A stretch of 32,000 nt of DNA from Synechococcus sp. A15-28 (GCF_014280175.1 NZ_CP047931.1:360001-392000), one strand, 5' to 3'; positions 13,843-30,912 are shown, counted from the stretch's first letter. Numbers and translations: made by a program. Notes: generated from the sequence alone by a model not told the origin.

Positions 13843-14256
13843 ATGGACGCGCAGCCCAACGGCAGCTCCGACCACCATTTCCGCGAGCGCTTCGACAGCC
13901 TCCTGCCGAGCATTCGTCGCCGCTGGCCGGATCTGGCTCAGCACACTCTGGAAGCCACCCGGGGCAGCATGGACGAGGTGGTGCGGCTGATTGAGCAGAA
14001 CACAGGGTTGACCCCCCAGGGGGTGCGTGAGCAGCTCGAGGAGTTGATGCATTCGGCTGGAGAGAGCGGCCGTCATCTGGCCGACAGCCTTGATCCGTTG
14101 GAACAGCAGCTGGAGCAGCTGCTGGATGAGCTGAACTCAACCCTGCGACCACGGATTGAACGCCCGGTCCGTCAGCGGCCACTGCTGGCTGTGGGAGTGG
14201 CCCTCGGGGTGGGTGTGCTGATCGGCTCGTTGCTCAGCGGCGGGCGGCGCTCCTGA
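13843..14256 (+). CDS. C-tail-anchored stress-type protein (YqjD/ElaB, DUF883-like architecture)
   Basis: 137 aa. A helical soluble region is followed by a single C-terminal TM helix (LLAVGVALGVGVLIGSLL). Confidence 0.6.
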   Translation: MDAQPNGSSDHHFRERFDSLLPSIRRRWPDLAQHTLEATRGSMDEVVRLIEQNTGLTPQGVREQLEELMHSAGESGRHLADSLDPLEQQLEQLLDELNSTLRPRIERPVRQRPLLAVGVALGVGVLIGSLLSGGRRS

Positions 14257-14642
14257 TGACGGATTCCCAACGACCCCGCGGACTCGGAGCGGCTGCACGG
14301 GTGACCACGTTGGCGGCATCCGTGATGGACCTGCATGTGCGCATGGCGCTGCAGGAGGTGGATCGGGAGAAGCGCCGCTTGATCAGTGGTGGGCTGTTCA
14401 TGGCCATCGGTGGCACGTCGATGCTGTTGGCGCTGCTGGCCGGTGAGGTGGCTCTCGTGCTGTGGATTCAGCAGACCTGGAGCCTGAGCCTCAGTCAGGC
14501 CTTGCTCGCTCTGGCCAGCGCCAATCTGGTGCTGGCGGGCATCAGCCTGCGCATTGGCGGCCAGGTGCTCAAAGCTCCGTACCTGCCCCAGACCCTGGAG
14601 GGTCTGAGCCGAACCGTGAGGGCTGTTCTCGGTCGCGAGTGA
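14256..14642 (+). CDS. YqjE-like / 'phage holin family' membrane protein (DUF1469-like)
   Basis: 128 aa with two TM helices. Start overlaps the upstream stop (TGATG), the same pairing as E. coli yqjD-yqjE. Confidence 0.6.
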   Translation: MTDSQRPRGLGAAARVTTLAASVMDLHVRMALQEVDREKRRLISGGLFMAIGGTSMLLALLAGEVALVLWIQQTWSLSLSQALLALASANLVLAGISLRIGGQVLKAPYLPQTLEGLSRTVRAVLGRE

Positions 14643-15804: not shown

Positions 15805-15895
15805 ACCACTGCTGTCAGAATGACAGGGTTCGGTTCTCCGGACTAGGTGATCCACACCAGTGTTTCGGACAGCGGTTCGATTCCGCTCAGCTCCA
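15805..15895 (+). ncRNA. ssrA: tmRNA acceptor piece of a permuted two-piece ssrA (5' boundary approximate)
   Basis: GGACTAGG...TGTTTCGGAC is followed by T arm AGCGG-TTCGATT-CCGCT (15871-15887), 3' acceptor strand CAGCTCC (15888-15894) and discriminator A (15895). CCA is not encoded. Confidence 0.8.
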
Positions 15896-15910
15896 TTCTC
15901 CCTTTCACGA

Positions 15911-16110
15911 GGGGCTGCAATGGTTTCGACGGGGCATGAGGAGGGTGACTGAAGCCTGCTCGGTGAGAGCAAACCCGTAACTGCGAACAACATCGTTCGT
16001 TTCTCCCGTCAAGCAGCCCCTGTTGCTGCCTGACCCTTAGGGGAGATGGGGTGAAGTCAGCCTTATCACCCAATTGACTCATGGGGGCTGTAAGGCCCCT
16101 TCAACTCATC
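15911..16110 (+). ncRNA. ssrA: tmRNA coding piece of the permuted ssrA (3' boundary approximate)
   Basis: Begins GGGGCTGCAATGGTTTCGACGGGG. GGGGCTG pairs with CAGCTCC, giving the G3:U70 alanine identity pair. The tag frame at 15983-16033, GCG AAC AAC ATC GTT CGT TTC TCC CGT CAA GCA GCC CCT GTT GCT GCC TGA, encodes (A)NNIVRFSRQAAPVAA*. Terminal hairpin at 16084-16099. Confidence 0.8.
16064..16086 (+). repeat. att core copy 1 (attL), within the tmRNA coding-piece 3' region
   Basis: TATCACCCAATTGACTCATGGGG. Its partner at 24925-24947 differs at one base. Confidence 0.75.
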
Positions 16111-17159
16111 CCAAGGGAACGGATCTGGCAATTACGCCAGAGCCCGAAAAATCCCTTTCCGACAAATCTTCCGACAAGCTCCCGCCCGTCTTTGCCGGGC
16201 TAGATAAGGCGGAGGCTTTGGCCTACGTCAGCCGCTTGTTTGATGCGGCAGCCGCCGGCGCCGTGCTCTGGGGGGACAAGCTCCTCCTGAAGCGATTCCT
16301 TGAGCAGTGCTCGCGCACCGGCTCCCAGGAGACCAAGGACGGCTATCGGCGAGAGCTGCAGCACTTCACTCGCTGGCGTGACCAGAACCACCCACACATG
16401 CACCTGAGGGAACTCGATCCCGCGCTGGTGGATGACTGGGTCTCTTCCTTGCGTGAGCAGGTGGAGGCAGGGGAGCTAAAACCGCGTTCCTTCAACCGCC
16501 GCATCAGTGCGGTGAGCGCCCTTTACCGGTGGGCCGCGGAACCTACCCGATCAACTGTGTCAGGAGTGCCGCGGAACCCAGTCCCCCGAAGAACAGGAAT
16601 GTCGGCACCAAAGTTGGCCAAGCCGTTGGCTGAGTCTGATCTGACATCAGTCCTGGGAGTCATCAGTGCCGCGAAGGTAAAAGGCTCCGCCATTGCTGCG
16701 CGTGACTATGTGATGGTCCGCGGTTCGTATCTGATTGGTTGTCGCGTGTCTGAACTGTGCCGGCTCCGCTGGCAGGACATTGAGCGATTGGATAACGGCG
16801 GTCAGGTTTCCCTTTTGGGCAAGGGGAACAAGCCCCGCACGATTCGTGTCAGCGTCGCAACCTTGGAGCTGTTTGAGTCGTTGGGCCGCGGCGAGCCTGA
16901 AGACTGGTTGTTTCCGAGCGACCGGCGTGAGGGCCCAATGACTCGTCAGGCAGTCGCAGCTCGCATGGCGAGGTGGGGAAAGGAGGCTGGGGTGAGGCTC
17001 TATCCGCATCGTTGTCGTCACACGCATGCCACGAATGCTGTTCGCGCTGGGACAAGCCTTTTTGTTTTGCAGGCAACTCTTGGCCACAGCTCATCTGCAA
17101 CGACTGGTCATTACGTTGCCGCCAACCCTGAAGACAGTTCTTCTCTACGACTTGGGTGA
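16074..17159 (+). CDS. Tyrosine recombinase / phage-type integrase (int1)
   Basis: Catalytic signature R (GCRVSELCRLRW), HxxR (HRCRHTHATNAV) and H...Y (LGHSSSATTGHYV). The longest ORF starts at a TTG inside the att core. The true start may be downstream, for example TTG 16218. Confidence 0.88.
   Translation: MTHGGCKAPSTHPKGTDLAITPEPEKSLSDKSSDKLPPVFAGLDKAEALAYVSRLFDAAAAGAVLWGDKLLLKRFLEQCSRTGSQETKDGYRRELQHFTRWRDQNHPHMHLRELDPALVDDWVSSLREQVEAGELKPRSFNRRISAVSALYRWAAEPTRSTVSGVPRNPVPRRTGMSAPKLAKPLAESDLTSVLGVISAAKVKGSAIAARDYVMVRGSYLIGCRVSELCRLRWQDIERLDNGGQVSLLGKGNKPRTIRVSVATLELFESLGRGEPEDWLFPSDRREGPMTRQAVAARMARWGKEAGVRLYPHRCRHTHATNAVRAGTSLFVLQATLGHSSSATTGHYVAANPEDSSSLRLG
16157..16177 (+). promoter_or_regulatory. 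Doublet TTCCGACAA-N3-TTCCGACAA (candidate arm-type recombinase site, left end)
   Basis: TTCCGACAAATCTTCCGACAA. Nearly the same doublet, in the same orientation, occurs at 24789-24808. Confidence 0.45.
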
Positions 17160-17550
17160 CGTAAGCAGAATTGTGTAAAGTCGTTTTTAATTGCAATTAG
17201 GCATAAAGAAGGGGACAGTTTTCACATGCCCCCTTCCCTGCCTGAAGTTTGCAAGGAGCACCCCTGCACATTCAATTTAGCGCCATTGCTCCGCTTGTAG
17301 GAGCTTTTTTAATGGCAAAACTGCCCTAAAGCTCTGCATTTGAGCTTATTTTGTTCAAATGATGGCTAGAATATGATTGTCACTCTGGAGGCTTAAATGA
17401 CTGTCAGAGATCCATTGACTGTCAAAGAGGTGCGAAAACTTTGTGAGTCGCGCTTACGCATCTAGCGGGATCAATCTACTCCTGATGATGATCTGCCGAA
17501 TGTTCCTGAGTGTCCACTGACTAATCCGTCAATCCATCGACTTATTGACA

Positions 17551-17955
17551 ATGTTTGATCTCGATCAGGAAGTGGCTAAAGCCCACCAGTCTGTAACCGA
17601 AATAGAGAGCCAGGCCAGGGCGATTGAGGCACGAATCAAGAAGATTGATGGGGCTGACAACCTGCTGCCCAAGAGGGCCTATGGCAAATCCATTGATACC
17701 GCTGCAATCGCCAGATCTTTAACCCTGCGTTCTTTGCTGGCAAAGAACGATCCCCAGCTCGCCAGTTACTTAGGTGTGGGCACCGATGCCCACATCAGAG
17801 CAGAAGAGGAAAAGGAAGCTCGCCGTCTGCGCGCACAGGCCCTGGGGATGAAGACTGAAAAGATTCGCGCTCAAAATCAGGCTGCTGCCCTTCATCGAGA
17901 GCGTGCTTCCCTTGCTGGGGTTAGTCCATTGACAGGCCGGAGGCTTGGACAATGA
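17551..17955 (+). CDS. Hypothetical coiled-coil protein
   Basis: ATG at 17551. First gene of a + strand cluster whose members overlap by ATGA. Charged helical composition with no recognisable motif. Confidence 0.5.
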   Translation: MFDLDQEVAKAHQSVTEIESQARAIEARIKKIDGADNLLPKRAYGKSIDTAAIARSLTLRSLLAKNDPQLASYLGVGTDAHIRAEEEKEARRLRAQALGMKTEKIRAQNQAAALHRERASLAGVSPLTGRRLGQ

Positions 17956-18293
17956 GAACTGCTAAGTGCCATCCTCAGCTCGGCTGGCTTCGGCTTGAGC
18001 CTTACGACTATTCACGCTCACTGGATCACCTTTTGGCGTGTAGGGACAGAGATTCTGATCTGACTCGTAGCGGGCCTAGCCCGGAGTACATCAGTTGGAT
18101 GTGGTCGACGGAGCTGCCTGGGCTGATGCGGAAGGAGAAATACAGAGATCAAGTTCGTCAGCACTGTTCTGACCTTGCTCGTAAGTCCGAGGAGTTGGAC
18201 ATCGACATCCGTTCGATTGTCGGGTCGAAATTGGAGCAGCAGGCAAAAGCCGACGAGTTAAGAGCACAACTGACTGCGCTGTTGGATGAATGA
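17952..18293 (+). CDS. Hypothetical protein
   Basis: 113 aa with ATGA overlaps at both the upstream and downstream junctions. Confidence 0.5.
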   Translation: MRTAKCHPQLGWLRLEPYDYSRSLDHLLACRDRDSDLTRSGPSPEYISWMWSTELPGLMRKEKYRDQVRQHCSDLARKSEELDIDIRSIVGSKLEQQAKADELRAQLTALLDE

Positions 18294-18508
18294 TCACTTC
18301 CGATGTTCAGCATGTCGCAACAGTTCTTGCGTCTACCCATCGCCAACATCCAGAGACCTTGCATTCTTTGGTGCCGATGTTCGGCGGACTGATCGTGATC
18401 ACCAACCGCCAGCTCCTTTTGCACCTGCTGGATACGGAGACTGATTGGCCATGGCAAGAGCCACCGCAGCAGAGACCGCCGAACGGGTTGGTCAGCTCCA
18501 AAAACTGA
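18290..18508 (+). CDS. Hypothetical small protein (doubtful)
   Basis: 72 aa. Overlaps the previous stop by ATGA but overlaps the next gene by ~58 nt. Confidence 0.3.
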   Translation: MITSDVQHVATVLASTHRQHPETLHSLVPMFGGLIVITNRQLLLHLLDTETDWPWQEPPQQRPPNGLVSSKN

Positions 18509-18810
18509 TCCTTGAAGGTCAAAACAGCGCGTCTTGTCTTGCCTTTGCGAGACAAACGTGGGGGCTCAGCCGAGCGCAGGGTTACAAGCTGATCAAGAGA
18601 GCGTGGGCTCAGATCAAAGACGACATCGAAGAGGCCGGCATAGATCGGCACGAAATGCTGGCTTGGTCAATCCAGAACTTGATGGCGGCGGCAGGCCAGG
18701 CAAAGCAGCAGAAGAACCCCGGCGCTTTGGTGAGCGCCATTCGCCAGCTTGATTGGATGTGCGGTCTTGGCGTCAACTCACATGCCGGGCATCGAGTCCA
18801 CAGGCATTGA
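18451..18810 (+). CDS. HTH-containing protein, paralog of 31585-31965 (possible small-terminase-like or regulatory protein)
   Basis: ATG 18451 is preceded by GGAG. N-terminal HTH-like segment LILEGQNSASCLAFARQTWGLSRAQGYKLIKRAW. Aligns by eye with the 126-aa ORF at the window end (L.LI..G...A......WG.SR). Confidence 0.55.
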   Translation: MARATAAETAERVGQLQKLILEGQNSASCLAFARQTWGLSRAQGYKLIKRAWAQIKDDIEEAGIDRHEMLAWSIQNLMAAAGQAKQQKNPGALVSAIRQLDWMCGLGVNSHAGHRVHRH

Positions 18811-18910
18811 GTGTCGTAATAGATATTGCGCCTCTGGCAGACGAGATCGACATTTGATTAGTAATTAGGTTTTGACTGCTTTCGTCGATCGAATTGATAA
18901 CTGAGTCGTC

Positions 18911-19210
18911 TCAGTTGGAGATGAAACAGTTGTCTGGTGTGTAGCCAAGGAGCAACATCGTTGAGATTCCCAATAGCCACCCAACGAATACCGCTCCCCA
19001 AATTAATTGGTCTGTGCTGAGATTTACGTTCCTCATAAGTGTTCCTCGATACATAGATTGTTGCATCTTGCACTTGCAATCATTGCTTGCTTCGTTTGGC
19101 GATGCTGTATCGATTGTATGTTTAATCAAAAATGGTTTAACCATCCAAAACTTTTCGTCATAGGCAGTCAGAACAAGGATTGCAGAAGCTGCGGCTGGTG
19201 GGACCCACAA
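18911..19210 (-). CDS. Hypothetical two-TM membrane protein
   Basis: TTG start with two hydrophobic helices (AAASAILVLTAY; LIWGAVFVGWLLGISTMLLLGY). Third gene of a minus-strand trio of small membrane ORFs. Confidence 0.4.
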   Translation of the reverse strand: MWVPPAAASAILVLTAYDEKFWMVKPFLIKHTIDTASPNEASNDCKCKMQQSMYRGTLMRNVNLSTDQLIWGAVFVGWLLGISTMLLLGYTPDNCFISN

Positions 19211-19228
19211 GGTTGACCGACGTCTGAA

Positions 19229-19318
19229 TCAGAATGACTCAATCAACCAAGTCACTATGGATAAGGCAATAGCAACTATCAAGAGCGTTGCTTTCTTCGG
19301 CTTCCGCTTCAAAGCCAT
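19229..19318 (-). CDS. 29-aa single-TM peptide
   Basis: MALKRKPKKATLLIVAIALSIVTWLIESF. Not in the ORF track. Lies 4 nt downstream of the preceding small ORF. Confidence 0.35.
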   Translation of the reverse strand: MALKRKPKKATLLIVAIALSIVTWLIESF

Positions 19319-19322
19319 TAGG

Positions 19323-19421
19323 TCAACCAGCTGTGAACAAGGTAAACAGCAGCAAAGAGGCCCACACAGCAATCAGCAGGGTCTTTCGATTGAGCTTCTG
19401 ATCAGTATTGTCAGCTGGCAT
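19323..19421 (-). CDS. 32-aa single-TM peptide
   Basis: MPADNTDQKLNRKTLLIAVWASLLLFTLFTAG. Not in the ORF track. Confidence 0.35.
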   Translation of the reverse strand: MPADNTDQKLNRKTLLIAVWASLLLFTLFTAG

Positions 19422-19721
19422 TGGAGGTGTTTGTAGAGCCTTCGTTAGGAATCCTGTGTATCACCAGTTGCTGCTGCAGAAGGTTCAGGAGCAGCACTTT
19501 CAACAATATGGAAGCGGTTAAGACCTCTAGAGGGATGTGAGTCAGGAGTTCAGAGCTGGCTCATGTGATTACGCCGGTTTTAGCACAATCGGTTTTGTCG
19601 GATCCTCGCTGAGTTTTGCGGTATCTGATTACACATCTATTAAGGTGTAAGGCCATAAGCCCTGTTTTTACGTTGTTGTCGAGGCTATATGTTGTGTGAG
19701 TTTGTGAGGGGGAGAACAGGT

Positions 19722-20195
19722 TCAGGACTTTCCCTTTGCTTTCTCCAACTGGCCGATGATGAAATGCCGGTACTGTGCGGCTAGATCTTGAAATCCCTGT
19801 TCAACCAAACCGGCAATCACGTCAACCGCATCGTCTTCATGCTCGGGAATCAGCATTACCCCACGTTTGCGGCCAAGGATCATCTCCTGAATGATCGTTT
19901 GCGTCTTGCGTGGTGTGCCTGAGGGCTCCTCAAGTACTTCCTGGGCAGGAATGAATCGCGCACGGTGCTGATCATCGGAATTGATCTGTGCAATGAAGCA
20001 ATACTGAGCACCATTAATCTCGACCAATCCCCTGAATTCGGAGAGGTCTTCTGTGGCATCAACACAACAGAAGTTGTTGCTCTGGGATGGTGCTTTTCCA
20101 TCAAAGCCACGAATTCTGGTGATAGTCGCTTTGGCACTGAAAGACTCCTGAGTCAGCCGGGTTACCAACGACTCACATATGGTTCGCTTATTCAA
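19722..20195 (-). CDS. Hypothetical protein (island cargo, no recognisable domain)
   Basis: 157-aa ORF in low-G+C DNA downstream of the replication module. Confidence 0.55.
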   Translation of the reverse strand: MNKRTICESLVTRLTQESFSAKATITRIRGFDGKAPSQSNNFCCVDATEDLSEFRGLVEINGAQYCFIAQINSDDQHRARFIPAQEVLEEPSGTPRKTQTIIQEMILGRKRGVMLIPEHEDDAVDVIAGLVEQGFQDLAAQYRHFIIGQLEKAKGKS

Positions 20196-20292
20196 GACAA
20201 ATTAGAGTCAAGCCATATTTGAGCTGCTTCAAGCGCTACTATTTGTAGCTGCTGATACTTTTTGAGTCCGTCTACTGACTTGACGCAATTTT

Positions 20293-20334
20293 GATTACGA
20301 AGAAAGGGCCAGGAGTATCAGTGCTATCCTGGCC
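20293..20334 (-). terminator. Probable intrinsic terminator after the 128-aa cargo gene
   Basis: On the minus strand: GGCCAGGA-(12 nt)-TCCTGGCC followed by CTTTCTTCG, starting 10 nt after the stop at 20344. Confidence 0.5.
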
Positions 20335-20343
20335 TGAGGAGTT

Positions 20344-20730
20344 TTATGAACTGGCTGTAAGCGTCCAGATTTTTTTGTCAGTTATCCAATCTATTTGGTG
20401 AATAGCATTACCGAATGTCCAATGATACGACTCATAAAATCCTTCCCAGGATTGGCAATGAGGCTGAAAAATTTCTACTTTGTATATCCAAATTTCATAC
20501 TCACAATCCCACGCACCGCAGATGTTTGCGTTTTTGTACTTCCAGCACCCTGCGCCAGAATAGTCCAACGCTATGTTTTGAGGTTTGCTTTCTGATTTAA
20601 AGCGTTTAAGTAATCCCCCGAGTAATTCATTGATCTTGTTTTGGATTAAATCTGTGTGTTCGGGGCTGTCTTTGTATAATTCATCTAAGTACGACGAAAT
20701 TTCTTGGATAGTGCAATGGTGAAAAGACAT
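20344..20730 (-). CDS. Hypothetical Cys/Trp-rich protein (island cargo)
   Basis: 128-aa low-G+C ORF with no recognisable motif. Confidence 0.55.
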   Translation of the reverse strand: MSFHHCTIQEISSYLDELYKDSPEHTDLIQNKINELLGGLLKRFKSESKPQNIALDYSGAGCWKYKNANICGAWDCEYEIWIYKVEIFQPHCQSWEGFYESYHWTFGNAIHQIDWITDKKIWTLTASS

Positions 20731-20761
20731 AGTGTGATTGTTGGAAGGGTTTAGACGTTTT

Positions 20762-20782
20762 TACTGTCCCTACTGTCCCTAC
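20762..20782. repeat. Tandem TACTGTCCC x2 (+TAC) between the primase-helicase and cargo genes
   Basis: tactgtccc tactgtccc tac, followed by an 8-bp-stem hairpin CTCTTTTC-aataaata-GAGAAGAG at 20783-20806. Confidence 0.8.
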
Positions 20783-20839
20783 CTCTTTTCAATAAATAGA
20801 GAAGAGATAGGGAGTATGTAAGAGAGTGAACAAGTGGTG

Positions 20840-22834
20840 TTAGCGGGTCTGGACGGGATGGCCACTTGTCAATGGCGGGAAAAATGCGTTGACCCGTTGC
20901 CCGTCGATGCGTCTTCGCGCCTTGTGCCATCCCAGGTCTGCCATCAGCTCAGTAATGCGCTTCGCGTTTTGGCCGTTCTGGCGTTCAGCGCCAATGTCCA
21001 ATTCGCGATAAACGTCCTGGAGCTCGATGTATGCAGCACCAGATCGCCTGAGCACGATGTCTCGGATCAACTCTTCCCAAGGGTCTGGCATGTCGTAACC
21101 CGCATTACGGGAAACGATTTCATCCAGCTCTGATTCAGTACTGAACCACTGGAAGCCATCTCGATAGGCAGCCAAGGCCCGGGCCCAGAACGCATCACGG
21201 CCAAGCCGAACACGTTCGTAGGGGAGCATCTCTTCACCGAGCGGAATCAAGCAGAAGCGTGTGCTGCCAGTTCGATCAACCAATGGCGATCGATTTGCTG
21301 TTCCCCAGAACACTGAGCGCCGTGGGATTCGTTCCGTGCCCTTGCCGTACTTTCGCCGACATAAGTCGGTTGTTCGGCTGATGAAGGCCTTGAGCCTTTC
21401 TGCACTGGTTTTGCGAGTGAAGCCATCAAATTCGGCAAACTCGACCCCCCAGCAGAGCGCCATCAGGGTTACATCGTCGACATCCATGCGAAAGCTAATT
21501 CCGTCGCCATACCACTGATCACTGAACAAGGCCCGTCCAAGTTGTGTCTTGCCGATGCCCTGGGCTCCCAGGAGAACTGGCACCTGCCGGACTAAGCAGC
21601 CTGGCTGAAACACCCTGGCAATCGCTGCCACAGCGAAACGCTGCATGAAGCGAGCGGTGATGGCGTCGTCGATGTTGAACAGCCACTGGTCCAAGCGTTC
21701 CCATTGCTCGTTTGGCAACGGTTTTGCTTTCAGGTTTCCGATGTAGATCTGCACCGGATCAAACGGAGTATCAGCGCCCAGGGTGATGAAGGTGTCTGCT
21801 GTAAGCCGCTTCGGCCAGTTCAACTCGCCACGACTTAGGTACAGATAAAGGTTTTCGACTTCGTCTGCAGTGAACTCTCGTCCTTTGCAGTGAATCCCCT
21901 GGCTCCTCACGTTGAGCATTGGGGTTTCCCCCAGCTCATCAGTCATCCGAGCCAATGCTTCGCCGGCCTTGACCGTTTTCTGTTTCCGCAACTCGTGTTG
22001 CGACACATCCAGTCGGAACAAGGCCGCTTCACCAACGGCAGTGGTTTTGTCGCCGGAGTAAATCCAGCTGTTCCCATTCCGTTCAATCTTTTCGCGTAGC
22101 TCCAGTTTTGGTGGAGCCCACCGCTTGCCTATGTGGCAAAGGATCGCCTGGCCATCGCTGCTGATACGACAGTCCGGTTCCTTCCGCCCGCAGATGGGAC
22201 ATGGGATGCAGTCTTCCCAACCATCGGCTCGTAGGCCATGAGTCTTTCTTGAGTTGGTAGGGGCCGGGGAGCTGCACTCGCTGATGGCCGTCTGGTACAT
22301 CGCCCAAACTTCATCCGGCACTGGCTGGATGGTGTCGGGATTGCCCGTCAACCAGGAGTAATGACCTCCAGATTTGACGTGTTCGCCTGCCACAAGGACC
22401 TGGCCGCTGCCGAAGAAAAACTCCAGTTGCTCGCCGTCGGCAGTCTTTAAGACGGTTTTGCCAGTGCACTGACTCCACCGTTCTTGAGGCACGCGATAGA
22501 CGGCCTTGAAGCGGCTTTGATTGTTATCACGGCCAATCGTCCAGGTCTTGCTGTTGTTGGCAAGGTGCCCGAAACGCTCTGCCGCAACGTGAATTGCGGA
22601 AGGGCCGTCAAAGTCCAGAACCAGTAGCCCCCCGGCGTCTGGCCCACACCTCATTCCGATGCAGCGAAGTCCGTCGAAGTTGAGAACCTGCTGAAGGCTG
22701 AACCATTGGTTCGGCCAATCGGTCACCATCGGTGCTTTGCAATCAGCCCCCCAGCCACAGGGGAGCAACGGCAACTCATCAAGCAGCCTGAATTCTTCCC
22801 GCCACCAAGCGGGGGTTTGTTGTGTCGCTGTCAT
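20840..22834 (-). CDS. Bifunctional primase-polymerase (PrimPol) fused to a VirE/D5-type SF3 helicase
   Basis: 664 aa. N-terminal PrimPol pattern (LPLLPCGWGADCKAP...GLLVLDFDG). Central Cys cluster CIPCPICGRKEPDCRISSDGQAILCH. Walker A GAQGIGKT, Walker B VEFAEFDG and the VirE-type motif DRTGSTRF. Confidence 0.9.
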   Translation of the reverse strand: MTATQQTPAWWREEFRLLDELPLLPCGWGADCKAPMVTDWPNQWFSLQQVLNFDGLRCIGMRCGPDAGGLLVLDFDGPSAIHVAAERFGHLANNSKTWTIGRDNNQSRFKAVYRVPQERWSQCTGKTVLKTADGEQLEFFFGSGQVLVAGEHVKSGGHYSWLTGNPDTIQPVPDEVWAMYQTAISECSSPAPTNSRKTHGLRADGWEDCIPCPICGRKEPDCRISSDGQAILCHIGKRWAPPKLELREKIERNGNSWIYSGDKTTAVGEAALFRLDVSQHELRKQKTVKAGEALARMTDELGETPMLNVRSQGIHCKGREFTADEVENLYLYLSRGELNWPKRLTADTFITLGADTPFDPVQIYIGNLKAKPLPNEQWERLDQWLFNIDDAITARFMQRFAVAAIARVFQPGCLVRQVPVLLGAQGIGKTQLGRALFSDQWYGDGISFRMDVDDVTLMALCWGVEFAEFDGFTRKTSAERLKAFISRTTDLCRRKYGKGTERIPRRSVFWGTANRSPLVDRTGSTRFCLIPLGEEMLPYERVRLGRDAFWARALAAYRDGFQWFSTESELDEIVSRNAGYDMPDPWEELIRDIVLRRSGAAYIELQDVYRELDIGAERQNGQNAKRITELMADLGWHKARRRIDGQRVNAFFPPLTSGHPVQTR

Positions 22835-22848
22835 AGGGGTGCTCCGAT

Positions 22849-23106
22849 TCAGCGACGTGGCGAGCAGTCACGCGAGAAGGTTTCAACCTCTTCGCTCGGC
22901 TGGTGTTTGTAGTTCCACAGGCTCTGGATTGCCTGCTCTTTGTTCCATCGGATCTTGCGTGTGCCAAGTCCGACGTACTGCCAGTCCCGATGCTGTTTGA
23001 ACGGGCCGTTCGGGTCCCGTCGCATCCGAAGAATGGTTTCTGGGCAAAGATCAGTCGCTTCAGCGAACTGTCTTGTTGACGCAATCGACATTGCGATAAC
23101 TCGCAC
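22849..23106 (-). CDS. Excisionase/AlpA-like HTH protein (Xis-like), paralog of 25339-25608
   Basis: STRQFAEATDLCPETILRMRRD...WQYVGLG...EVETFSRD aligns with STQECADALGIHPQTLRKLRRH...YRWVGLS...AVETYSRG. Start is GTG 23106 or ATG 23091. Confidence 0.65.
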   Translation of the reverse strand: MRVIAMSIASTRQFAEATDLCPETILRMRRDPNGPFKQHRDWQYVGLGTRKIRWNKEQAIQSLWNYKHQPSEEVETFSRDCSPRR

Positions 23107-23108
23107 CC

Positions 23109-23432
23109 TTAGGTGCGGGGGGTGCCATCCCAGTTCTCGTGATGCAGAAGTTCGCGCTGGAGGGCTGCGTAAAAGTTCCGCAGCTTGTCCCGTCGCTTCT
23201 GATCGGGGTTGCCCTGCTCAAGGGTGCCGATGCGGAAGTCGGGGTCGTCCATACGGGCGCGCTTCTTGGTGAAGTAGCGGACTTGCCGCTCGGCGTACCG
23301 ACGATCGACTCCCTTGGGAGTCAACATCTCGACGCGAGTGGGGATGGGCCGATCAGGACCTTGCATCCAACTTGGATGACGTTTTCGGTTCGATCCCTCG
23401 GCGCAGACGTGATGCTGCGTTCCCGACTTCAC
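23109..23432 (-). CDS. Hypothetical basic protein between int2 and the xis-like gene
   Basis: 107-aa ORF co-directional with int2; its stop lies 2 nt before the xis-like start. Confidence 0.5.
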   Translation of the reverse strand: MKSGTQHHVCAEGSNRKRHPSWMQGPDRPIPTRVEMLTPKGVDRRYAERQVRYFTKKRARMDDPDFRIGTLEQGNPDQKRRDKLRNFYAALQRELLHHENWDGTPRT

Positions 23433-23500
23433 CTAGTTAACTTAACACCACTGATCGCGATCGTCAGGCAATCTCCCTACCGATGACACCAAATGTGGTG

Positions 23501-24760
23501 TCAGGGCAACGGGATCGTCTCCGCGTCTGACTCAAAGGCCCGAGCTTTGATCGCCTCTGTGATCTGCCGATAGCTGCGCTCATGCACCGCGAGTGAGTGC
23601 CCCATCGCATCCGCGATCACCGTCTTCTCCAGCCCCTCCCGATAGCAGCGAACTCCGAAGCCATCTCTCAGCGAATACACCCGAACCCAGTCCTTCGTCG
23701 GGAGCGCGGCGTATTTATCGATCAGCTCCTTCCACCGCTGCTGAACCGGCCCGGCTGGCTTCCCGTTGCGCTTCCTGTGGAGGTAGCGATTGCAGGCGTG
23801 ACCGGTGAACTCCTTCAGGTCCGGCAGCTTCAACGTCCCCGCCTCCCACGCTTCCACCAGCGGCCACTGCACCGGCTTGTCGTGCTCCGATCGCCGGAAG
23901 TGCATTGGGCGGAGATACCGCGGCTCGGTGTCCTCCTGGCCGCCGACCTTCTCGTAGGAGCAATAGAAGACCCTCTCGCCGGTCTTGCTCGTCGGGTCCG
24001 GCTCCACTGTTAGGTGCTGGATCTCGACTGGACGTAATCCGTATTGCGCCAGCAGTCGGAACAGGTTTGCCCAGGCCGGGTTCTCCTGTTGCACCAGATC
24101 GATGAAGTCCAGGATCTCGGCGTCCTCCAGCACGGCCTTCTTCCGTTTCCTTGTCCGCTTGGGGCACAGCTCGTCACGGTCGGCCTGGGTGATGAGCCAG
24201 GAGCGCGGGACCTTGTATCGGCGGACCGCGAACTCCATGAACCGGGCCAGATACCGGCCACATTCCTTCTGGACTGTTGGGGCATGGGCCCAGTTCTTCA
24301 GCACGGCCTTGAGCAGCTCGTAGCCATCGGCAGGTTTATTGCGCCGGCCCAGCACCCTCACCGCTTCATTGAGGATCGGCTCCCAGTTGGTTTTCCAGGT
24401 CTGCGGCTTGATCTGCTTGCCGAACTCAATTTTCGATTCCTTCATGGCCGCGGCAATGCCGGCCCAGGTGACCTCATCCCCCCTTTCGGGGGGAACGTCG
24501 CTGCTGCCCTTCACCTCCGCCAGGCATTCCTTCAGCGTCCGCTGCCCTTCGGCTGCGCTCCAGACCTTGTAGAGCCGGCGTGACCAGTTGATCGCCGCCT
24601 CCTCGTCCTCCTCCCGATAACGGAGCTTGGGGAGGTTCACCTGCTCCCGCGCTTGGCCGGCTACCCGGTATCGGATGCAGACGTATCCCTTGTCGTTGGT
24701 GATGCTCCAGCCGGGCCACTTGCTGCTGATCGACACCAGCCGCATCTCCCACACGGGCAT
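23501..24760 (-). CDS. Tyrosine recombinase / integrase (int2), a different family from int1
   Basis: R (YGLRPVEIQHL), xLRD box (VYSLRDGFGVRC) and H...Y (MGHSLAVHERSYR). ATG at 24760 (MPVWEMRLVS). The ORF track extends to TTG 24808 across the arm-type repeats. Confidence 0.85.
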   Translation of the reverse strand: MPVWEMRLVSISSKWPGWSITNDKGYVCIRYRVAGQAREQVNLPKLRYREEDEEAAINWSRRLYKVWSAAEGQRTLKECLAEVKGSSDVPPERGDEVTWAGIAAAMKESKIEFGKQIKPQTWKTNWEPILNEAVRVLGRRNKPADGYELLKAVLKNWAHAPTVQKECGRYLARFMEFAVRRYKVPRSWLITQADRDELCPKRTRKRKKAVLEDAEILDFIDLVQQENPAWANLFRLLAQYGLRPVEIQHLTVEPDPTSKTGERVFYCSYEKVGGQEDTEPRYLRPMHFRRSEHDKPVQWPLVEAWEAGTLKLPDLKEFTGHACNRYLHRKRNGKPAGPVQQRWKELIDKYAALPTKDWVRVYSLRDGFGVRCYREGLEKTVIADAMGHSLAVHERSYRQITEAIKARAFESDAETIPLP

Positions 24761-24788
24761 CTCGCTGAGATTGCGACGCGGCACGCTC

Positions 24789-24808
24789 TTCCGACAAATT
24801 TCCGACAA
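24789..24808 (+). promoter_or_regulatory. Doublet TTCCGACAA-N2-TTCCGACAA (candidate arm-type site, right end of element 1)
   Basis: TTCCGACAAATTTCCGACAA, in the same orientation as 16157-16177. Confidence 0.45.
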
Positions 24809-24924
24809 ACAAGTCTTGTTTGGTTGTCGACGGTCGTCAAGGGTTGCCTACGGGATTAGGCTGTGACTGGCTTTTCTCCGAGAAGCCCTGAAACCAATGT
24901 TGTCGTAATCAGGCGAGTCATGCC

Positions 24925-24947
24925 TATCACCCAAATGACTCATGGGG
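24925..24947 (+). repeat. att core copy 2 (junction between element 1 and element 2)
   Basis: TATCACCCAAATGACTCATGGGG. The flanks are also similar to the 16051-16105 region, including a hairpin at 24945-24960. Confidence 0.75.
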
Positions 24948-25000
24948 CCTGGAAGGGCCCTTAACCATTTCACTGCAGGCGATCTCGGCAAACCTGGTTT

Positions 25001-25040
25001 TCGGGATAAATCAGCTTCGGGATAAATCTCGGGATAAATC
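25001..25040 (+). promoter_or_regulatory. Three direct copies of TCGGGATAAATC (candidate arm-type or iteron sites)
   Basis: Exact 12-mers at 25001-25012, 25017-25028 and 25029-25040, beginning 54 bp right of att core copy 2. Confidence 0.55.
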
Positions 25041-25338
25041 GCTCGGAGCGGCTCTGTGCAGTCGACAGGCGCTGATGAGACCCCTAAGTTCTTAGTGCGA
25101 GGTCGGAGCCGTCCGATCTTGAAAGCAGCGCAGACCAGGTCCCAACGACCCTGCGTTAGTCAAATGAGAGGTAGCCCTGTCAGCGGTTCTCTCGGCTTGG
25201 TTGGGCAAGTGTTTCTGACAGGTCGCAATCGGTGGAGTAAAGCAGCAAGCCGCAAGCGGAAACAGCTACAGGACGGCGAAGACGAAGGGATGGCTTAGCG
25301 GACGGCCTGACCTGAAGCTCGCTCAGCACAGAGATGCT

Positions 25339-25608
25339 GTGACCGCAACCAACGCTGCCGTGACCCAATGGGTCTCCACCCAGGAGTGCGCTGACGCTCT
25401 TGGCATTCATCCACAAACGCTGCGAAAGCTCCGGCGTCATCGGATCCCGCTTTTCAAGGAAGGCCGCGACTACCGATGGGTTGGCCTCAGTACCAGCAGC
25501 ACCCTTCAGTGGCATGTCCACAGTGCGAGCCAGGCGTTCACCGATTTCCGTTTGATGCCTGCTGAGGCGGTTGAGACCTACAGCCGTGGGAGCAGAGCCC
25601 ATGCCTGA
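25339..25608 (+). CDS. Excisionase/AlpA-like HTH protein (Xis-like), paralog of 22849-23106
   Basis: See the alignment under 22849-23106. GTG start at 25339 or 25360. The antisense 157-aa ORF is rejected. Confidence 0.65.
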   Translation: MTATNAAVTQWVSTQECADALGIHPQTLRKLRRHRIPLFKEGRDYRWVGLSTSSTLQWHVHSASQAFTDFRLMPAEAVETYSRGSRAHA

Positions 25609-25891
25609 ACAACTCATGTCCGAGCTTGATGTGATCGAGTTGCCGGATGGCACCAGTCACAAGGTCAAAGGTGATGTCATCTCCGTTTTGATTCCGAGGA
25701 AGGATCGGAAGTGCTGGGTGGTACTTCATCTCCAAATCAGCAGAGACAACACGCTTCACTGCCACCTGCGTGGCGGCCACTGGGACTCAATGGCTCACAA
25801 CTGCGATCCAGACAGAACATTCGATCTGGATTTTTACAACGCACTTGAATCTGAAATCAGAGAAGACATGGAGGCCAGTGATGTCCGCTGA
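25601..25891 (+). CDS. Hypothetical protein
   Basis: ATG at 25601 overlaps the xis-like stop (ATGCCTGA); 96 aa. Confidence 0.45.
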   Translation: MPEQLMSELDVIELPDGTSHKVKGDVISVLIPRKDRKCWVVLHLQISRDNTLHCHLRGGHWDSMAHNCDPDRTFDLDFYNALESEIREDMEASDVR

Positions 25892-26099
25892 TCTCTACAC
25901 CCGCCCGCTTCGTGCTTCGGTGCGTGAGCTTCTACAGGAAGACAACATCGACATCGCTGAAGCTCTTTATTCCGACTGCGATTATCCAACAGCACTCAGC
26001 AATCTTGCTGAAGTTCGTGTAGCTGCGCAGAAGGTGGTATTTGAAGCTGATGCGTTGATGTGCGCAGTGCTTGTTAAGGCGATAGGAGAAGACGATTGA
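25881..26099 (+). CDS. Hypothetical acidic protein
   Basis: ATG at 25881 overlaps the previous stop by 11 nt; 72 aa. Confidence 0.45.
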   Translation: MSADLYTRPLRASVRELLQEDNIDIAEALYSDCDYPTALSNLAEVRVAAQKVVFEADALMCAVLVKAIGEDD

Positions 26100-26185
26100 A
26101 TCATCATATGGGCGGGTAATTCTCGCCCATTGTTGACACTTTTAGTTCATCTCTCAAAATGGACTCATAAGATAAATTGGATCTT

Positions 26186-26356
26186 ATGAAATTCAAGCCG
26201 CGTTGCAAGTATCCGCACATTGCTGCGACATACCTAAGCGATGAACTGCTCAATGAAGTCAACAAATTTTGCGTCGACAACGAATGCAGCAAATCAGAAG
26301 GAATTCGCCTCCTGATGCAGAACGGCCTTGCCGCAATGCTTCTGGACGAGGCATAA
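26186..26356 (+). CDS. Ribbon-helix-helix (CopG/Arc-like) DNA-binding protein
   Basis: 56-aa ORF not in the ORF track: MKFKPRCKYPHIAATYLSDELLNEVNKFCVDNECSKSEGIRLLMQNGLAAMLLDEA. It shows a beta-strand, helix, SKSEGIR, helix pattern. Confidence 0.55.
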   Translation: MKFKPRCKYPHIAATYLSDELLNEVNKFCVDNECSKSEGIRLLMQNGLAAMLLDEA

Positions 26357-26397
26357 AAAAACCACCGTGCCAGCGGTGGCTCAAAAATCAGGTTCCC

Positions 26398-26592
26398 ATG
26401 AAGTCTACTTTGAAAAGACCATCATTCCCAGATGACTGGGAACAGGAGCCAGCGTCTCCGTTGGTCCTTGATCAGGTACTGAGTCCCGAGTGGCAAGACC
26501 TTGCTTTGCTAATGGCCTGCAGGGAAATTGCCAAGATGAATCGGCTGACATTGGAAGAACAGCTTCATTGCTGGAGGCCTTTTGATGTCTAA
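26398..26592 (+). CDS. Hypothetical protein upstream of, and overlapping, the helicase start
   Basis: 64 aa starting at ATG 26398. Its stop overlaps the helicase ATG at 26585. Confidence 0.4.
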   Translation: MKSTLKRPSFPDDWEQEPASPLVLDQVLSPEWQDLALLMACREIAKMNRLTLEEQLHCWRPFDV

Positions 26593-28258
26593 ACCGGATG
26601 AGAACAAGGATGCCTGGGAACGACTAGTTGTTCTTAAGGAGTTGGATCGCGATTCAAGCTTTAAGCCAGGCTATGACTACAAGACAGATCTCAAGCTCGC
26701 ACTCAGAAAGCGTGATGAGCCCGTTACTACGGTCACGAATAGATCCGCAAAAAATACCAAGCCGCTGGTTCTTAGCACTGCAGAATATATTGAGGAATTA
26801 AGTAAGAAGGCCGACATAATCGTTGCCGACACCAGCATCCCAACGACACACCGGCTCATCCATCTCCGCAACGTAGCGACCGGCTTCCCAACGAGCTTTA
26901 AGGATGCGGAGTTACAGAGATTGCTTTGGGATGCAAGGCGTAGACTGGCTCCAGGTGCAAAGCCAATAGGCCAAGGCGGGAAATTATCAAGACGTCAAGC
27001 TCCCTGGTTGTGGGATGGCATCCTTATCAAATCAACGACCAACTTGGTTGTTGCATTACCAAAGGTCGGCAAAAGCCGTCTGATAAGCCAGGTTATTGGC
27101 AGGCTTGCCAAAGGTGAAGATGAGTTTCTTGGTCGCAAGCTCTTTGGTCCCTGCCCACCAGTCTTGATAGTTGGGACTGATCAACCAGAGCCAGATTGGG
27201 CAGAGTGTCTGGGTTTAGCCGGTCTTTTAGATGCCGATGGCGCAATGCACTCTTGCATCAAAGAGCTGTATCACACCGGTTGTCCTCTTCATTTAGATGA
27301 GGATGGTATTGACCGGATAACTGAGCTATGTCGGCAGTATCCAGGAATGCTTATCCTGGTTGATAGCTATGCAAAATGTACGAATAATTTGGGAATTGTG
27401 GAGTCAGATTCGCAATACGCTGGCCCGCTTATGGATTTGCAGGAAGCGACTGCGCCATATGGTGCGACCTTGGTCGTGATTCATCACAGCAACCGAAATT
27501 CAGCAGGCGGTCGTGCTTCGATGTCCTCTCGTGGAACAACTGCATTACCTGCAGCAGTTTCACAAACGATCAGCTTGACCTGGGCCAACGCAGATGATGC
27601 AAACCCGTTAGCTAAGCGTGATGGCCGCGTCAAACTCAACACCGAAGGACGTGGTGGCAAACCACAGGATCTTCTAATTGAGCAGATTGAGGACGGTCAC
27701 GACTGGCTCCTCCACGGAACTGGTGAGGAAATTGCAGTACAGAGTGCGCTTGAGAAGCTGATAGAGGCTTTGACAGATCGCCAATATGCTGCGCTTAGAG
27801 ATATGGCTCATCACTACAACGCCACTGGTTGTGGAATGGATGCTCGGCATCTTGCAGATGCCCTTGATCTGTCACCACACGGCAGAGTAAAGGCGCAAGA
27901 AGTACTGGATTCGCTCAACAGGAAGAAGTTAATTGAGCCTGCCGGCAACCGGCCTGCGTTGGGATCTGACGGTGGCAAACCTGCAAATCTCTATCGGCCA
28001 GTTGACGCAGTCCTTCCCTTGTTTGCATTATCAGCTTCTATACCTTTCAAACCTTCTATTGATAACGTAACGGTTACGAAAACAAAAGAAGGTATAGAGG
28101 ATATGAAAGGTGATTCTTTATACAAGGAAATGATGCTCACTTGTGAATGCTGTGGCAAGGAGTTTGCTGCCAACAAAAAAGGAACGGCCAAGAAATACTG
28201 TTCGGAGACCTGCAGGGTTCGTGCGTATCGCGATCGCAAATCTCGCAATGCTGCTTAG
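26585..28258 (+). CDS. RepA/AAA_25-like RecA-fold replicative helicase with C-terminal wHTH-like region and zinc ribbon
   Basis: Walker A LPKVGKS, Walker B MLILVDSY and VVIHHSNRN. C-terminal CECCGKEF...CSETCRVRAYRDRK. Confidence 0.85.
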   Translation: MSKPDENKDAWERLVVLKELDRDSSFKPGYDYKTDLKLALRKRDEPVTTVTNRSAKNTKPLVLSTAEYIEELSKKADIIVADTSIPTTHRLIHLRNVATGFPTSFKDAELQRLLWDARRRLAPGAKPIGQGGKLSRRQAPWLWDGILIKSTTNLVVALPKVGKSRLISQVIGRLAKGEDEFLGRKLFGPCPPVLIVGTDQPEPDWAECLGLAGLLDADGAMHSCIKELYHTGCPLHLDEDGIDRITELCRQYPGMLILVDSYAKCTNNLGIVESDSQYAGPLMDLQEATAPYGATLVVIHHSNRNSAGGRASMSSRGTTALPAAVSQTISLTWANADDANPLAKRDGRVKLNTEGRGGKPQDLLIEQIEDGHDWLLHGTGEEIAVQSALEKLIEALTDRQYAALRDMAHHYNATGCGMDARHLADALDLSPHGRVKAQEVLDSLNRKKLIEPAGNRPALGSDGGKPANLYRPVDAVLPLFALSASIPFKPSIDNVTVTKTKEGIEDMKGDSLYKEMMLTCECCGKEFAANKKGTAKKYCSETCRVRAYRDRKSRNAA

Positions 28259-28700
28259 ACCTGTGCAGCAAGCACCAGCGTCTTCGGGATGCGCCTCAGC
28301 CCACCGGCAACGTATGCCTCCCAGCAAGTGGCCGTGGCAGATCCGGTGCGCTGAAAGTTTTCTCAGCGAAAACTTCCACAAAGTCAACTTTACGAGAGAT
28401 ACCTCCTAGAGGGCAGGCCAAAGCACGAAACGGCCTGTGTGTACCTTCAACGATGAGATTTCCAAGCGATTGGGCATTGGTGATGTGGATCGTCATGGGT
28501 AAAACCTTATTTCCTTTGGTCTAAGCCTGCTCATTCGGAGGATGTCGTACCACATCTCACCAAACAAAAGTTTTCAGCCACATCAACGTAACGTGTAATT
28601 TTCCTCTAACGGCTTAGGTGATGTAAAACAGTCACGCCAAACAGCAATGTACGCTTTCCATTGCTACTAATCTACGGATATCCCGCGCCAGACTGACGTC

Positions 28701-28931
28701 ATGAAATTTCTCGTCTTGCCCTTCTCAATGCTGTTCATGGCAGAACCTGCGCTCTCTTCCAGCGACAAGCAAGTCTTCCTGTCAATGCAGAAGTTTGAGC
28801 AGGTGGCTGACAGGGCACATGCCTTCTGCGCGAGCGTTGACCTTGAGTTCTCTCAAAAGTTCTATGACTGCATGGACAAGAAGATGCATGGAATTTATAT
28901 CGACAGCAGCACGGTTAGATCACGTAATTAA
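28701..28931 (+). CDS. Small secreted protein
   Basis: 76 aa with signal peptide MKFLVLPFSMLFMAEPALS and Cys residues in the mature part. Confidence 0.5.
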   Translation: MKFLVLPFSMLFMAEPALSSSDKQVFLSMQKFEQVADRAHAFCASVDLEFSQKFYDCMDKKMHGIYIDSSTVRSRN

Positions 28932-29132
28932 GACGAATACGGGTCCTTCTTGTGTAGTACAGCGTAGGTTTCTTCAGATCGCCTTCATTATTTAGCGCCA
29001 GATAAGTTGGGCCTAAATTGCTTAGCACTATCTATTAGCGAAACTAATCAAATTAGTGGTCATTAGAAGGCGATAGCACGGTGGACTGGTCTGCACACTG
29101 TTCTCCCGTACGGCTTTCCAGTACTGCCTTAC

Positions 29133-29513
29133 CTACGCACTGCTCAGGACATCTTCGCGAAAAGCTTTTTGTCGTTCGACCACATCCTGACACCGGATTA
29201 CAGGAGTGAAGTCCATCTCAATGCCGAATTGAGGACGCCATGGCGCGAAGGCTTCAAAGATCTGAGCATCACTCTCTGCCTTAAACAAAATTGTTACTCG
29301 GCCTGCGCAAGGTGCGTGGACGCGGAACAACATTTCAAAGCCATCAAAGTTGTCTAGCTTCGCTATTTCTCCTGAATCCCACAGCTCACAGAAGCATTTG
29401 TAAGCAGCCAGTTGACCTTCAATCTCAGGAAAAACGCAATCCGCGAGATACATCTGCATGGGAAGTACGAAGAAGGAGTCAGCCATTTGATAGGCATCCC
29501 AAGGTTTTGCCAC
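29133..29513 (-). CDS. Hypothetical protein, possibly DUF3303-like
   Basis: 126 aa. The C-terminal pattern APWRPQFGIEMDFTPVIRCQDVVE resembles the DUF3303 tail, from recall only. Confidence 0.5.
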   Translation of the reverse strand: MAKPWDAYQMADSFFVLPMQMYLADCVFPEIEGQLAAYKCFCELWDSGEIAKLDNFDGFEMLFRVHAPCAGRVTILFKAESDAQIFEAFAPWRPQFGIEMDFTPVIRCQDVVERQKAFREDVLSSA

Positions 29514-29714
29514 TGTTCAGTTGATTAGATCGTGACAATGGAATGTCAGCGCCGGAACGGCTTATGCGAGTGGCTCCCACGGAAGTGAGCTTCAAATTGC
29601 CTGTGCAGCTGCGGCTACAACGACATCATGTGCCGACTATTGATGCGGGCTTACTCACATTGATGGAACAAACAGACCTGCTGAGCCATGACAGGGGGGT
29701 TAAGCATTAAAACC

Positions 29715-30606: not shown

Positions 30607-30701
30607 GAGAATGCAATACCTAACATTATAATGGCTAAGTACCGTCAAAAATGTGGATCTAGAACGCAAGTCGTTCAGAGACGCGCCCGATACCGATACC
30701 G

Positions 30702-30893: not shown

Positions 30894-30912
30894 ATGATCA
30901 GGAGCTGACTAA

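Follow-up and report, generated by a model that had tools for sequence, protein, structure and literature searches.

What lies between the transfer-messenger RNA (tmRNA) gene of Synechococcus sp. A15-28 and a second copy of that gene's own 3′ end, 8.9 kb farther downstream? We addressed this question in a 32-kb window of the A15-28 chromosome (the window being the whole stretch of DNA analyzed, with coordinates counted from its first base). The ssrA gene of this window specifies a permuted, two-piece tmRNA with the tag ANNIVRFSRQAAPVAA (ARAGORN), and the DNA that follows it, here called E1 (8,861 bp, from 16064-70 to 24925-31), is very probably an integrated, self-replicating element of the tycheposon or tDNA-island kind that is likely to be still mobile. 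The tycheposon assignment is made on the integration site, the gene layout, and mobility, and not on integrase lineage.

Direct repeats of the tmRNA 3′ end delimit E1

A preliminary description of this DNA had reported an imperfect direct repeat at the 3′ end of ssrA, and we confirm it. The 23-mer TATCACCCAAWTGACTCATGGGG occurs exactly twice in 32 kb, at 16064-16086 and 24925-24947, and 100 shuffles gave an expectation of 0 matches even with three mismatches allowed. Without gaps, the repeat spans 47 nt (16055-16101 versus 24916-24962, 85% identity, spacing 8,861 bp); blastn-short returns a 38-nt block (89.5%, E = 1.5e-7) and no third copy in the window, and no second copy lies within 10 kb in six relatives. 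The tmRNA gene and the displaced fragment (24925-24960) share one orientation, both on the + strand, and Rfam and junction comparisons find no tmRNA 5′ part upstream of the second copy. The weaker similarity that had been described around the core is also real: beyond the 38-nt block it corresponds to a conserved GTCA half-site on the left, and on the right it arises because two related elements have homologous downstream (P′) arms.

The guanine-plus-cytosine (GC) content is 0.63-0.70 in the flanking core and 0.45-0.58 inside the element, where two tyrosine recombinase genes read inward, int1 from attL and YR2 from attR (Table 1). A Prim-Pol/VapE gene lies two small open reading frames (ORFs) away from YR2, and public annotation names the three main element proteins integrase, VapE-domain protein, and phage integrase. 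A search with the RlmL-like gene led to six marine Synechococcus relatives that keep the synteny tRNA-Leu(GAG) … RlmL-like … tmRNA and carry unrelated DNA 3′ of the tmRNA gene. The interior is not conserved syntenic core in these relatives, and the element is found elsewhere; the preliminary proposal that the two copies are the attL and attR of an element with a functional replacement 3′ end therefore stands, and the mobile-element genes, the relatives, and a circular molecule agree with it.

This circular molecule is represented by two contigs, L084 and L085, from two samples and independent assemblies, which are circular permutations of one 8,561-bp sequence with terminal overlaps of 16 and 123 nt. 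The molecule carries an attP: YR2 and then the P repeats stand on one side of the core, the P′ repeats and then int1 on the other. A metagenome contig, L043, carries an E1-type element between its own attL and attR, with a different cargo segment and with a replicase 95%, an int1 88%, and small ORFs 83-94% identical to those of the window, and E1 copies with a 100% identical YR2 adjoin at least three different right flanks. The idea that the repeat arose by chance or by local duplication, with ordinary chromosome in between, draws on the short length of the repeat and has practically no probability; the shuffles, the GC drop, the mobile-element genes, the same element in other contexts, and the circular relative already refute it.

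The putative crossover lies within a proposed tmRNA pseudoknot

A metagenome scan with an int1 profile yielded 80 loci. Many of these have element DNA in front of the core in place of the tmRNA 5′ part, and represent either attP sites or places where one tandem element meets the next. At about 15 independent junctions, identity to tmRNA starts at the T of TATCACC (16064) and the preceding base usually differs, while the element-side flank keeps GTCA nine to six bases upstream of the core. The window contains a dyad of GTCA (16056-59) and TGAC (16075-78), of the form GTCA-N4-TATCACC-N4-TGAC, centered on 16067 in the middle of TATCACC, and contig L046 contains the perfect palindrome GTCATTTG-TATCACC-CAAATGAC. 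From these alignments we infer a core of the classical tyrosine-recombinase type, in which the 7-bp overlap TATCACC, at 16064-16070 (attL) and 24925-24931 (attR), separates two 8-bp half-sites in inverted orientation. The lone mismatch, at 16074/24935, falls outside the overlap and is consistent with such a core. The ssrA sequence from 16064 on is supplied by the inserted element.

The two flanks of this core recur in the RNA: AGUCA (16055-59) is a loop segment of the coding piece's penultimate hairpin, and UGACU (16075-79) comes after that hairpin. Among 25 distinct tmRNA 3′ ends, 99.2% of the cells in this helix are paired, the variable pairs being AU12/GC7/GU5 and GC19/AU4/GU2, and the paired fraction falls to 34-65% in register-shifted controls. 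This covariation suggests that the two segments form the second stem of an H-type pseudoknot, proposed here and not displayable in the Rfam structure line. As the core flanks are the two strands of stem 2, the recombinase would use the DNA symmetry of an RNA helix, and a crossover inside the pseudoknot makes stem 2 a hybrid, with its 5′ strand from the host and its 3′ strand from the element. In L088 (4315 region), the loop sequence AGUCA comes from the host and UGACC from the element, so that stem 2 contains an A·C mismatch; hybrid tmRNAs that pair imperfectly can therefore result from integration.

Both copies end in a hairpin that the Rfam model draws as a 6-bp stem with a U:G closing pair and a GNRA tetraloop; the displaced one (24945-24960) reads GGGCCU-GGAA-GGGCCC. 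The fourth stem pair is G:C in the element-borne copy (16087:16096) and C:G in the displaced copy (24948:24957), and the same alternation occurs among the 25 natural 3′ ends (pairs 47-58 and 48-57), which bears out the earlier suggestion that a compensatory change preserves the hairpin. Together with the loop base 16074 and the second base of the tetraloop, this compensated pair accounts for the four differences between the copies in the tmRNA part, and all four are structurally neutral. Our mapping of the tmRNA also agrees with the earlier view that the element targets the coding piece, at its 3′ end, and neither the T arm nor the acceptor end. A proposed pairing of ATCACC (16065-70) with GGTGAT (15846-51), in contrast, was not borne out, as both segments belong to other helices in the Rfam covariance model. 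There, the partner of GGUGAU in tmRNA helix 2 is the GGGUGACU segment near 15940-47, and ATCACC forms a local hairpin as the 3′ partner of 16042-52, a pairing found in 100% of 25 sequences but without sequence variation. The chance of finding a 6-mer complement somewhere in an RNA of ~290 nt is about 7%.

Downstream of the terminal hairpin, 30-40 nt are conserved between unrelated elements (16100-16150 versus 24961-25000, and relatives), with the consensus …CCCTTCAACCATTCCAC.GCA..GGATCT…. Elements may also have to bring the signal by which the tmRNA precursor is processed or terminated at its 3′ end. Around the two junctions, simple scans for promoters and terminators gave nothing useful.

Arm repeats covary with the N-terminal part of YR2

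The word TTCCGACAA has four + strand copies in the window, all at the element ends. About 40 related loci have the same layout: a word of 9-12 nt stands at about +97 bp and again at about -130 bp, each time as repeats with a period of 11-12 nt. The family uses at least 20 different words, including TTCCGACAA, GTGATGCCA, and TCCAGACAA. Both arms carry the same word in the attP contigs L046, L085, L103, and L107, and the words differ on the two sides of the tandem junctions (the window at 24925, L099, L108, L126, and L129). Arm-like repeats follow every tmRNA 3′ end reached by the unbiased search that started from RlmL.

The arm word appears to track the N-terminal 55 residues of YR2, and neither int1 nor the replicase. 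The window and L043 share a 95% identical replicase, yet their words are different; int1 pairs with different words are 88-93% identical, and int1 pairs with the same word can be as low as 59-63%. When YR2 of the window is compared with those of L126 and L127, which have the same word, the N-terminal 55 residues are 87% and 85% identical and the rest 60% and 61%. The order is reversed for L128 and L129, which have the different word TCCAGACAA, where the N-terminus is 47% and the rest 72% identical.

The AlphaFold model of YR2 (predicted local distance difference test (pLDDT) 84.6) consists of an N-terminal β-sheet domain (a helix, three strands, and a long helix), a helical core-binding domain, and a catalytic domain with conserved R/R/H/Y. 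In the PDB, the model matches full-length lambda Int and Tn1549 Int best, and the gene always adjoins the P arm. These comparisons suggest that YR2 is an arm-binding, lambda-Int-like integrase; inverted core-type sites, an overlap, and arm sites on both sides, the architecture of a lambda-type system, are all present.

Direct repeats with a period of one helical turn near replication genes are also what plasmid origins contain, and the words could in principle be replication-origin iterons instead of recombinase arm sites. They stand, however, at fixed distances on both sides of the core whatever the type of replicase (Prim-Pol/VapE, DUF3987, or AAA_25), they differ between the window and L043 in spite of the near-identical replicases, and they follow the YR2 N-terminus. 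With the offsets from the core fixed, the replicase uncoupled, and the YR2 N-terminus coupled, we rejected the iteron reading as very improbable.

For the family as a whole, we put forward a more tentative scheme, to which we give somewhat less than even credence: many elements would share one tmRNA pseudoknot core, with private arm words read by a swappable N-domain of ~55 residues in YR2 and with a Xer-like second recombinase across attP, in marine and freshwater picocyanobacteria alike.

An inverted third arm site in the P arm was also considered, and is not claimed because its covariation was inconsistent. Two blocks of the P arm are conserved across elements with different words, GGTCGTCAAGGGTTGCC ~75-90 bp upstream of the core (window ~24835-24851) and TTCCGTAA ~20 bp upstream of it (TGTCGTAA in the window, 24899-24908); they could be accessory-protein sites or the YR2 promoter. 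In freshwater metagenomes, L067 (9847-12560; also L060 and L063) has a 2.7-kb mini-element between tmRNA and displaced fragment that holds int1 and a truncated YR2 only, with arms that differ (TCATCCAAA versus TGTTGCCAAAA), and looks like a deletion chimera of two tandem elements.

The Xer-like recombinase int1

The product of int1 is a minimal Xer-like enzyme with structural matches to XerD (1e-21) and XerA (5e-18). The family is conserved only from MDKAEALAY on, and the part upstream is variable arm DNA. GenBank (QNI41450.1, 361 aa) and most gene callers start int1 at TTG 16074, inside the tmRNA gene; we rejected this start because the family begins at MDKAEAL, and the annotated protein is probably an over-extension. 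With NCBIfam XerC/XerD scores of 119-122 bits against cut-offs of 330-335, int1 lies below the equivalog level, and the gene travels with the mobile element, so that it does not classify as a XerC/XerD dimer resolvase. Integrase homologs are named only from Synechococcus, Cyanobium, and Vulcanococcus.

It might be asked whether int1 made the insertion, with the arm repeats as its accessory sites and YR2 belonging to something else. The gene adjoins attL, the usual place of a tDNA-island integrase, and belongs to a very large family that is nearly always found beside a tmRNA 3′ end. Yet int1 has no domain upstream of its core-binding domain, the arm motif is uncoupled from the int1 sequence, and YR2 is the gene that always adjoins the P arm. 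Complete elements with matching arms and a YR2-like gene exist without int1 (L126-E2, 9,535 bp; L129, 6.9 kb), and we consider it improbable that int1 made the insertion.

Alternatively, both enzymes could act at the core as a heteromeric pair, with YR2 also tethering the arms. XerC/XerD and TnpA/TnpB of Tn554 are examples of two tyrosine recombinases encoded by, or acting on, one site. The pair in E1 differs from these in that it combines a lambda-like enzyme with an extra N-domain and a minimal Xer type, and its cooperation is only hypothetical. The two genes are divergent around attP in all complete elements that contain int1 (the window, L043, L126-E1, L130-131, and L085), and both recombinases keep their catalytic residues. 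The core half-sites, on the other hand, are symmetric and not of two kinds, and elements without int1 use the same core; we consider a heteromeric pair possible, if rather unlikely. Under the preferred reading of YR2 as the integrase, int1 could be a core partner, a multimer resolvase of the replicating circle, or something else.

E1 stands in front of an older element

The attR of E1 serves at the same time as left junction for E2, a second and older element in tandem. E2 was absent from the preliminary description, as were the two recombinases and the arm repeats. An E2 arm comes directly after attR, so the displaced 3′ end at 24925-24960 is the copy brought by the earlier E2. Contig L003 has an AAA_25 homolog and a homologous arm after its tmRNA, and complete E2-type elements bounded by matching arms occur in L126 and L129.

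L126 (GCA_047285405.1, JBJBDF010000003.1) shows three successive junctions after its tmRNA, in the order E1-like (TTCCGACAA), E2-like (CCGGATAA, 9.5 kb), and a third element (TGCACGCAAA) that starts with another int1, and is an array of at least three elements. Accretion of the kind seen in E1 before E2 is known for tycheposons (bioRxiv 10.1101/2020.12.28.424599) and for the ssrA islands of Dehalococcoides (PMC3146451).

Gene content of the locus

The coordinates of the locus are collected in Table 1. The variable cargo segment of ~1.4 kb has the lowest GC of the element, and L043 carries a leucine-rich repeat gene in its place. Searches of Pfam, NCBIfam, PHROGs, and PADLOC gave no family or defense matches for the small ORFs and the cargo. 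The two ORFs between the replicase and YR2 had no profile match in PHROGs and NCBIfam searches; one of them has an excisionase-like helix-turn-helix look, by eye only. In the 8,561-bp circle, L085:6611-7948 (+ strand, also in L084) encodes a 445-aa cargo protein with ubiquitin (9.7e-30), Rad60-SLD (8.6e-17), and autotransporter β-barrel (4e-21) domains (Pfam), and this fusion of a eukaryote-type ubiquitin with an autotransporter is unusual for a cyanobacterial mobile element. A Phage_holin_3_6 (Holin-X) gene at 14256-14642 (+ strand), beside the RlmL-like gene in the conserved core flank, lies outside the island because it has the same place in the relatives L045, L130, and L131.

Table 1 Features of the tmRNA locus and of elements E1 and E2 in the 32-kb window
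Feature	Coordinates	Strand	Evidence or remark
ssrA, permuted (two-piece) tmRNA gene	15812-16099	+	Rfam RF01851, 309.9 bits, model positions 1-288/288; ARAGORN permuted tmRNA
Coding-piece 3′ pseudoknot (proposed)	16042-16079	+	Stem 1, 16042-52 with 16060-71 (Rfam); stem 2, AGUCA 16055-59 with UGACU 16075-79
Direct repeat copy 1, attL	16055-16101	.	Exact-match and ungapped repeat searches; putative core C-O-C′ 16056-16078
Terminal hairpin, element-borne copy	16084-16099	+	GGGGCU-GUAA-GGCCCC; Rfam alignment, covariation among 25 sequences
P′ arm, TTCCGACAA ×2, 12-nt period	16157-16177	+	93-105 bp after attL overlap start, just upstream of int1
int1, Xer-like tyrosine recombinase, ~313-320 aa, no arm-binding domain	16218-17159	+	Pfam Phage_integrase 2e-29
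Four small conserved ORFs (136, 113, 72, 121 aa)	17545-18810	+	83-94% identical to same-place ORFs in L043
Variable cargo segment, including a 157-aa ORF at 19722-20195 (minus)	18834-20280	.	blastn alignment break, window versus L043
Replication protein, Prim-Pol primase-polymerase fused to VapE/VirE-type helicase domain	20840-22834	-	Pfam VapE-like 1.8e-48, Prim-Pol 2.3e-10
Two small ORFs between replicase and YR2	22849-23432	-	Called as 80-85-aa genes in L130-L137
YR2, divergent 419-aa three-domain tyrosine integrase	23501-24760	-	PHROG integrase 6e-10
P arm, TTCCGACAA ×2, 11-nt period	24789-24808	+	117-136 bp before attR overlap start, 29 bp upstream of YR2 start codon
Direct repeat copy 2, attR	24916-24962	.	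Overlap 24925-24931; displaced tmRNA 3′ fragment 24925-24960
E2, partial, runs off the window	24932-32000	.	GC 0.43-0.56; no int1
E2 P′ arm, TCGGGATAAAT ×3	25000-25040	+	Homologous to P′ arm of L003 and of int1-less elements in L126, L129
AAA_25 RepA/DnaB-like helicase of E2	26582-28258		Pfam AAA_25 3.7e-13

An integrase, a primase-helicase, a small size, and several small uncharacterized ORFs would also suit a phage satellite, resembling a phage-inducible chromosomal island (PICI) or P4, that is mobilized and packaged by a cyanophage and is not a cargo shuttle; PICI-like members are known among tycheposons (bioRxiv 10.1101/2020.12.28.424599). Pfam, PHROGs, and PADLOC, however, recognized no gene for a capsid, a terminase, or interference in E1, and three scans of viral contigs (with the replicase, int1, and an attP/attR-specific 24-mer) found no relative. 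We consider such a satellite unlikely. Nor does E1 classify as a prophage, as Pfam and PHROGs find no virion structural, packaging, or lysis genes in the 8.9 kb.

Proposed mechanism

We propose that E1 is a tycheposon-like element that moves as a circle. Its circle would carry an attP in which the final ~36 nt of the host tmRNA gene are copied between two arms, each bearing two short direct repeats, and a tyrosine recombinase would exchange strands with the chromosomal tmRNA gene inside the 7-bp TATCACC. The N-terminal domain of YR2 may read the TTCCGACAA arm repeats while C-terminal domains act at the shared core, with int1 as a possible accessory or partner recombinase. Integration would keep the gene intact, the 3′ end (part of the pseudoknot and the GNRA hairpin) becoming element-encoded and the previous end being displaced 8.9 kb downstream. 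After excision, the Prim-Pol/VapE protein may replicate the circle. E1 would have integrated in front of the older E2, pushing it downstream and giving rise to the tandem array.

Several points weigh against this picture. For E1 itself, the analysis found neither an excision junction nor a circle nor an empty site, the circle coming from a relative, and no empty tmRNA site (attB) was present in any genome examined; the comparison with relatives that the preliminary description had called for thus shows a different interior and no truly empty site. YR2 has Y/S where most family members carry the first catalytic His, and its N-domain alone (pLDDT 92.6) has no significant match to a known arm-binding domain (best Foldseek E = 0.11), so that its DNA-binding role is argued from covariation and position only. 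The int1 start is uncertain, perhaps TTG 16218, as the conserved ATG of the family is CTA in E1, and the role of int1 in the proposed scheme is a tentative one. Finally, the mature 3′ end of the tmRNA coding piece is placed by the Rfam model and covariation, and its position is accordingly a predicted one.

Relation to known systems

Of all tRNA-type genes, the one for tmRNA shows the strongest enrichment as an integration target (PMC4383910); it is also one of the seven targets of tycheposons in Prochlorococcus (bioRxiv 10.1101/2020.12.28.424599), and tycheposon-like insertions occur in Synechococcus at tRNA-Phe (PMC8995045). Like tycheposons, E1 belongs to a small size class (2-10+ kb), resides in marine picocyanobacteria at the 3′ end of a tRNA-type gene, and has an inward tyrosine recombinase at its end and a small primase/helicase module (hel_VirE is listed for tycheposons); tandem arrays with partial gene copies, degraded remnants, and circular intermediates are shared as well. 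It differs from the tycheposons of the preprint in its Synechococcus host, whose tmRNA gene is the site, and in the two recombinases flanking attP, and the preprint does not mention motif-variable arm repeats like those of E1 (bioRxiv 10.1101/2020.12.28.424599).

The features by which Islander recognizes tDNA islands, an intact gene, a displaced 3′ fragment in the same orientation, an integrase inside, and an interior that related genomes lack or replace, are found in E1 (PMC4383910). The gene is likewise restored by the island, and the crossover falls in a short segment flanked by helix-derived symmetry. Unlike in tDNA islands, the symmetric flanks of E1 come from a pseudoknot stem of the permuted coding piece, not from an anticodon or T stem. 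Williams, in 2002, reportedly described anticodon- and T-stem sublocations in tRNA genes that follow the same helix-symmetry logic.

With lambda Int and its attP, E1 shares a three-domain integrase and arm repeats ~100-130 bp from a 7-bp overlap with inverted core sites. It differs in the N-domain of YR2, which has no detectable similarity to the arm-binding domains of lambda or Tn916, in its second, Xer-like recombinase, and in that no Xis was identified in E1. The ssrA islands of Dehalococcoides resemble this locus in tandem stacking after a single tmRNA gene, direct repeats of its 3′ end, and an integration module by attL, but they use serine recombinases (DsiB/DsiA), a 20-bp T-loop repeat, and a one-piece tmRNA and have no replication module (PMC3146451).

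With these hallmarks of tmRNA-targeting elements and tycheposons, the E1 locus therefore joins a known kind, in an already sequenced and annotated strain. The basic event, an element at a tmRNA 3′ end, is textbook, and the dual-recombinase module and the variable arm motifs are possibly its only new points. In the literature searched, which did not extend to Williams 2003 and the final tycheposon paper, we found no description of a pseudoknot-stem core, a recombinase pair flanking attP, or a match of arm word and N-domain. The pseudoknot-stem core, the recombinase pair, and the repertoire of arm words, as read from these alignments, would be of moderate novelty in mechanism.

Implications

Insertion at the tmRNA gene is a main route of gene gain and loss in picocyanobacteria, and this locus gives a base-pair-level view of it. 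Since the final ~36 nt of an essential RNA are rewritten by the element, the sequences of host and element have to remain compatible in structure, and this holds for the hybrid pseudoknot stem as well. If the private-word reading is true, many elements could stack at one essential gene and yet excise individually, and the Xer-like enzyme across attP would be part of a two-recombinase module not described for tycheposons. A true pairing of arm motif and N-domain would explain how dozens of competing elements share one attachment site, and would make these elements a natural collection of orthogonal integrase/attP pairs that share one attB.

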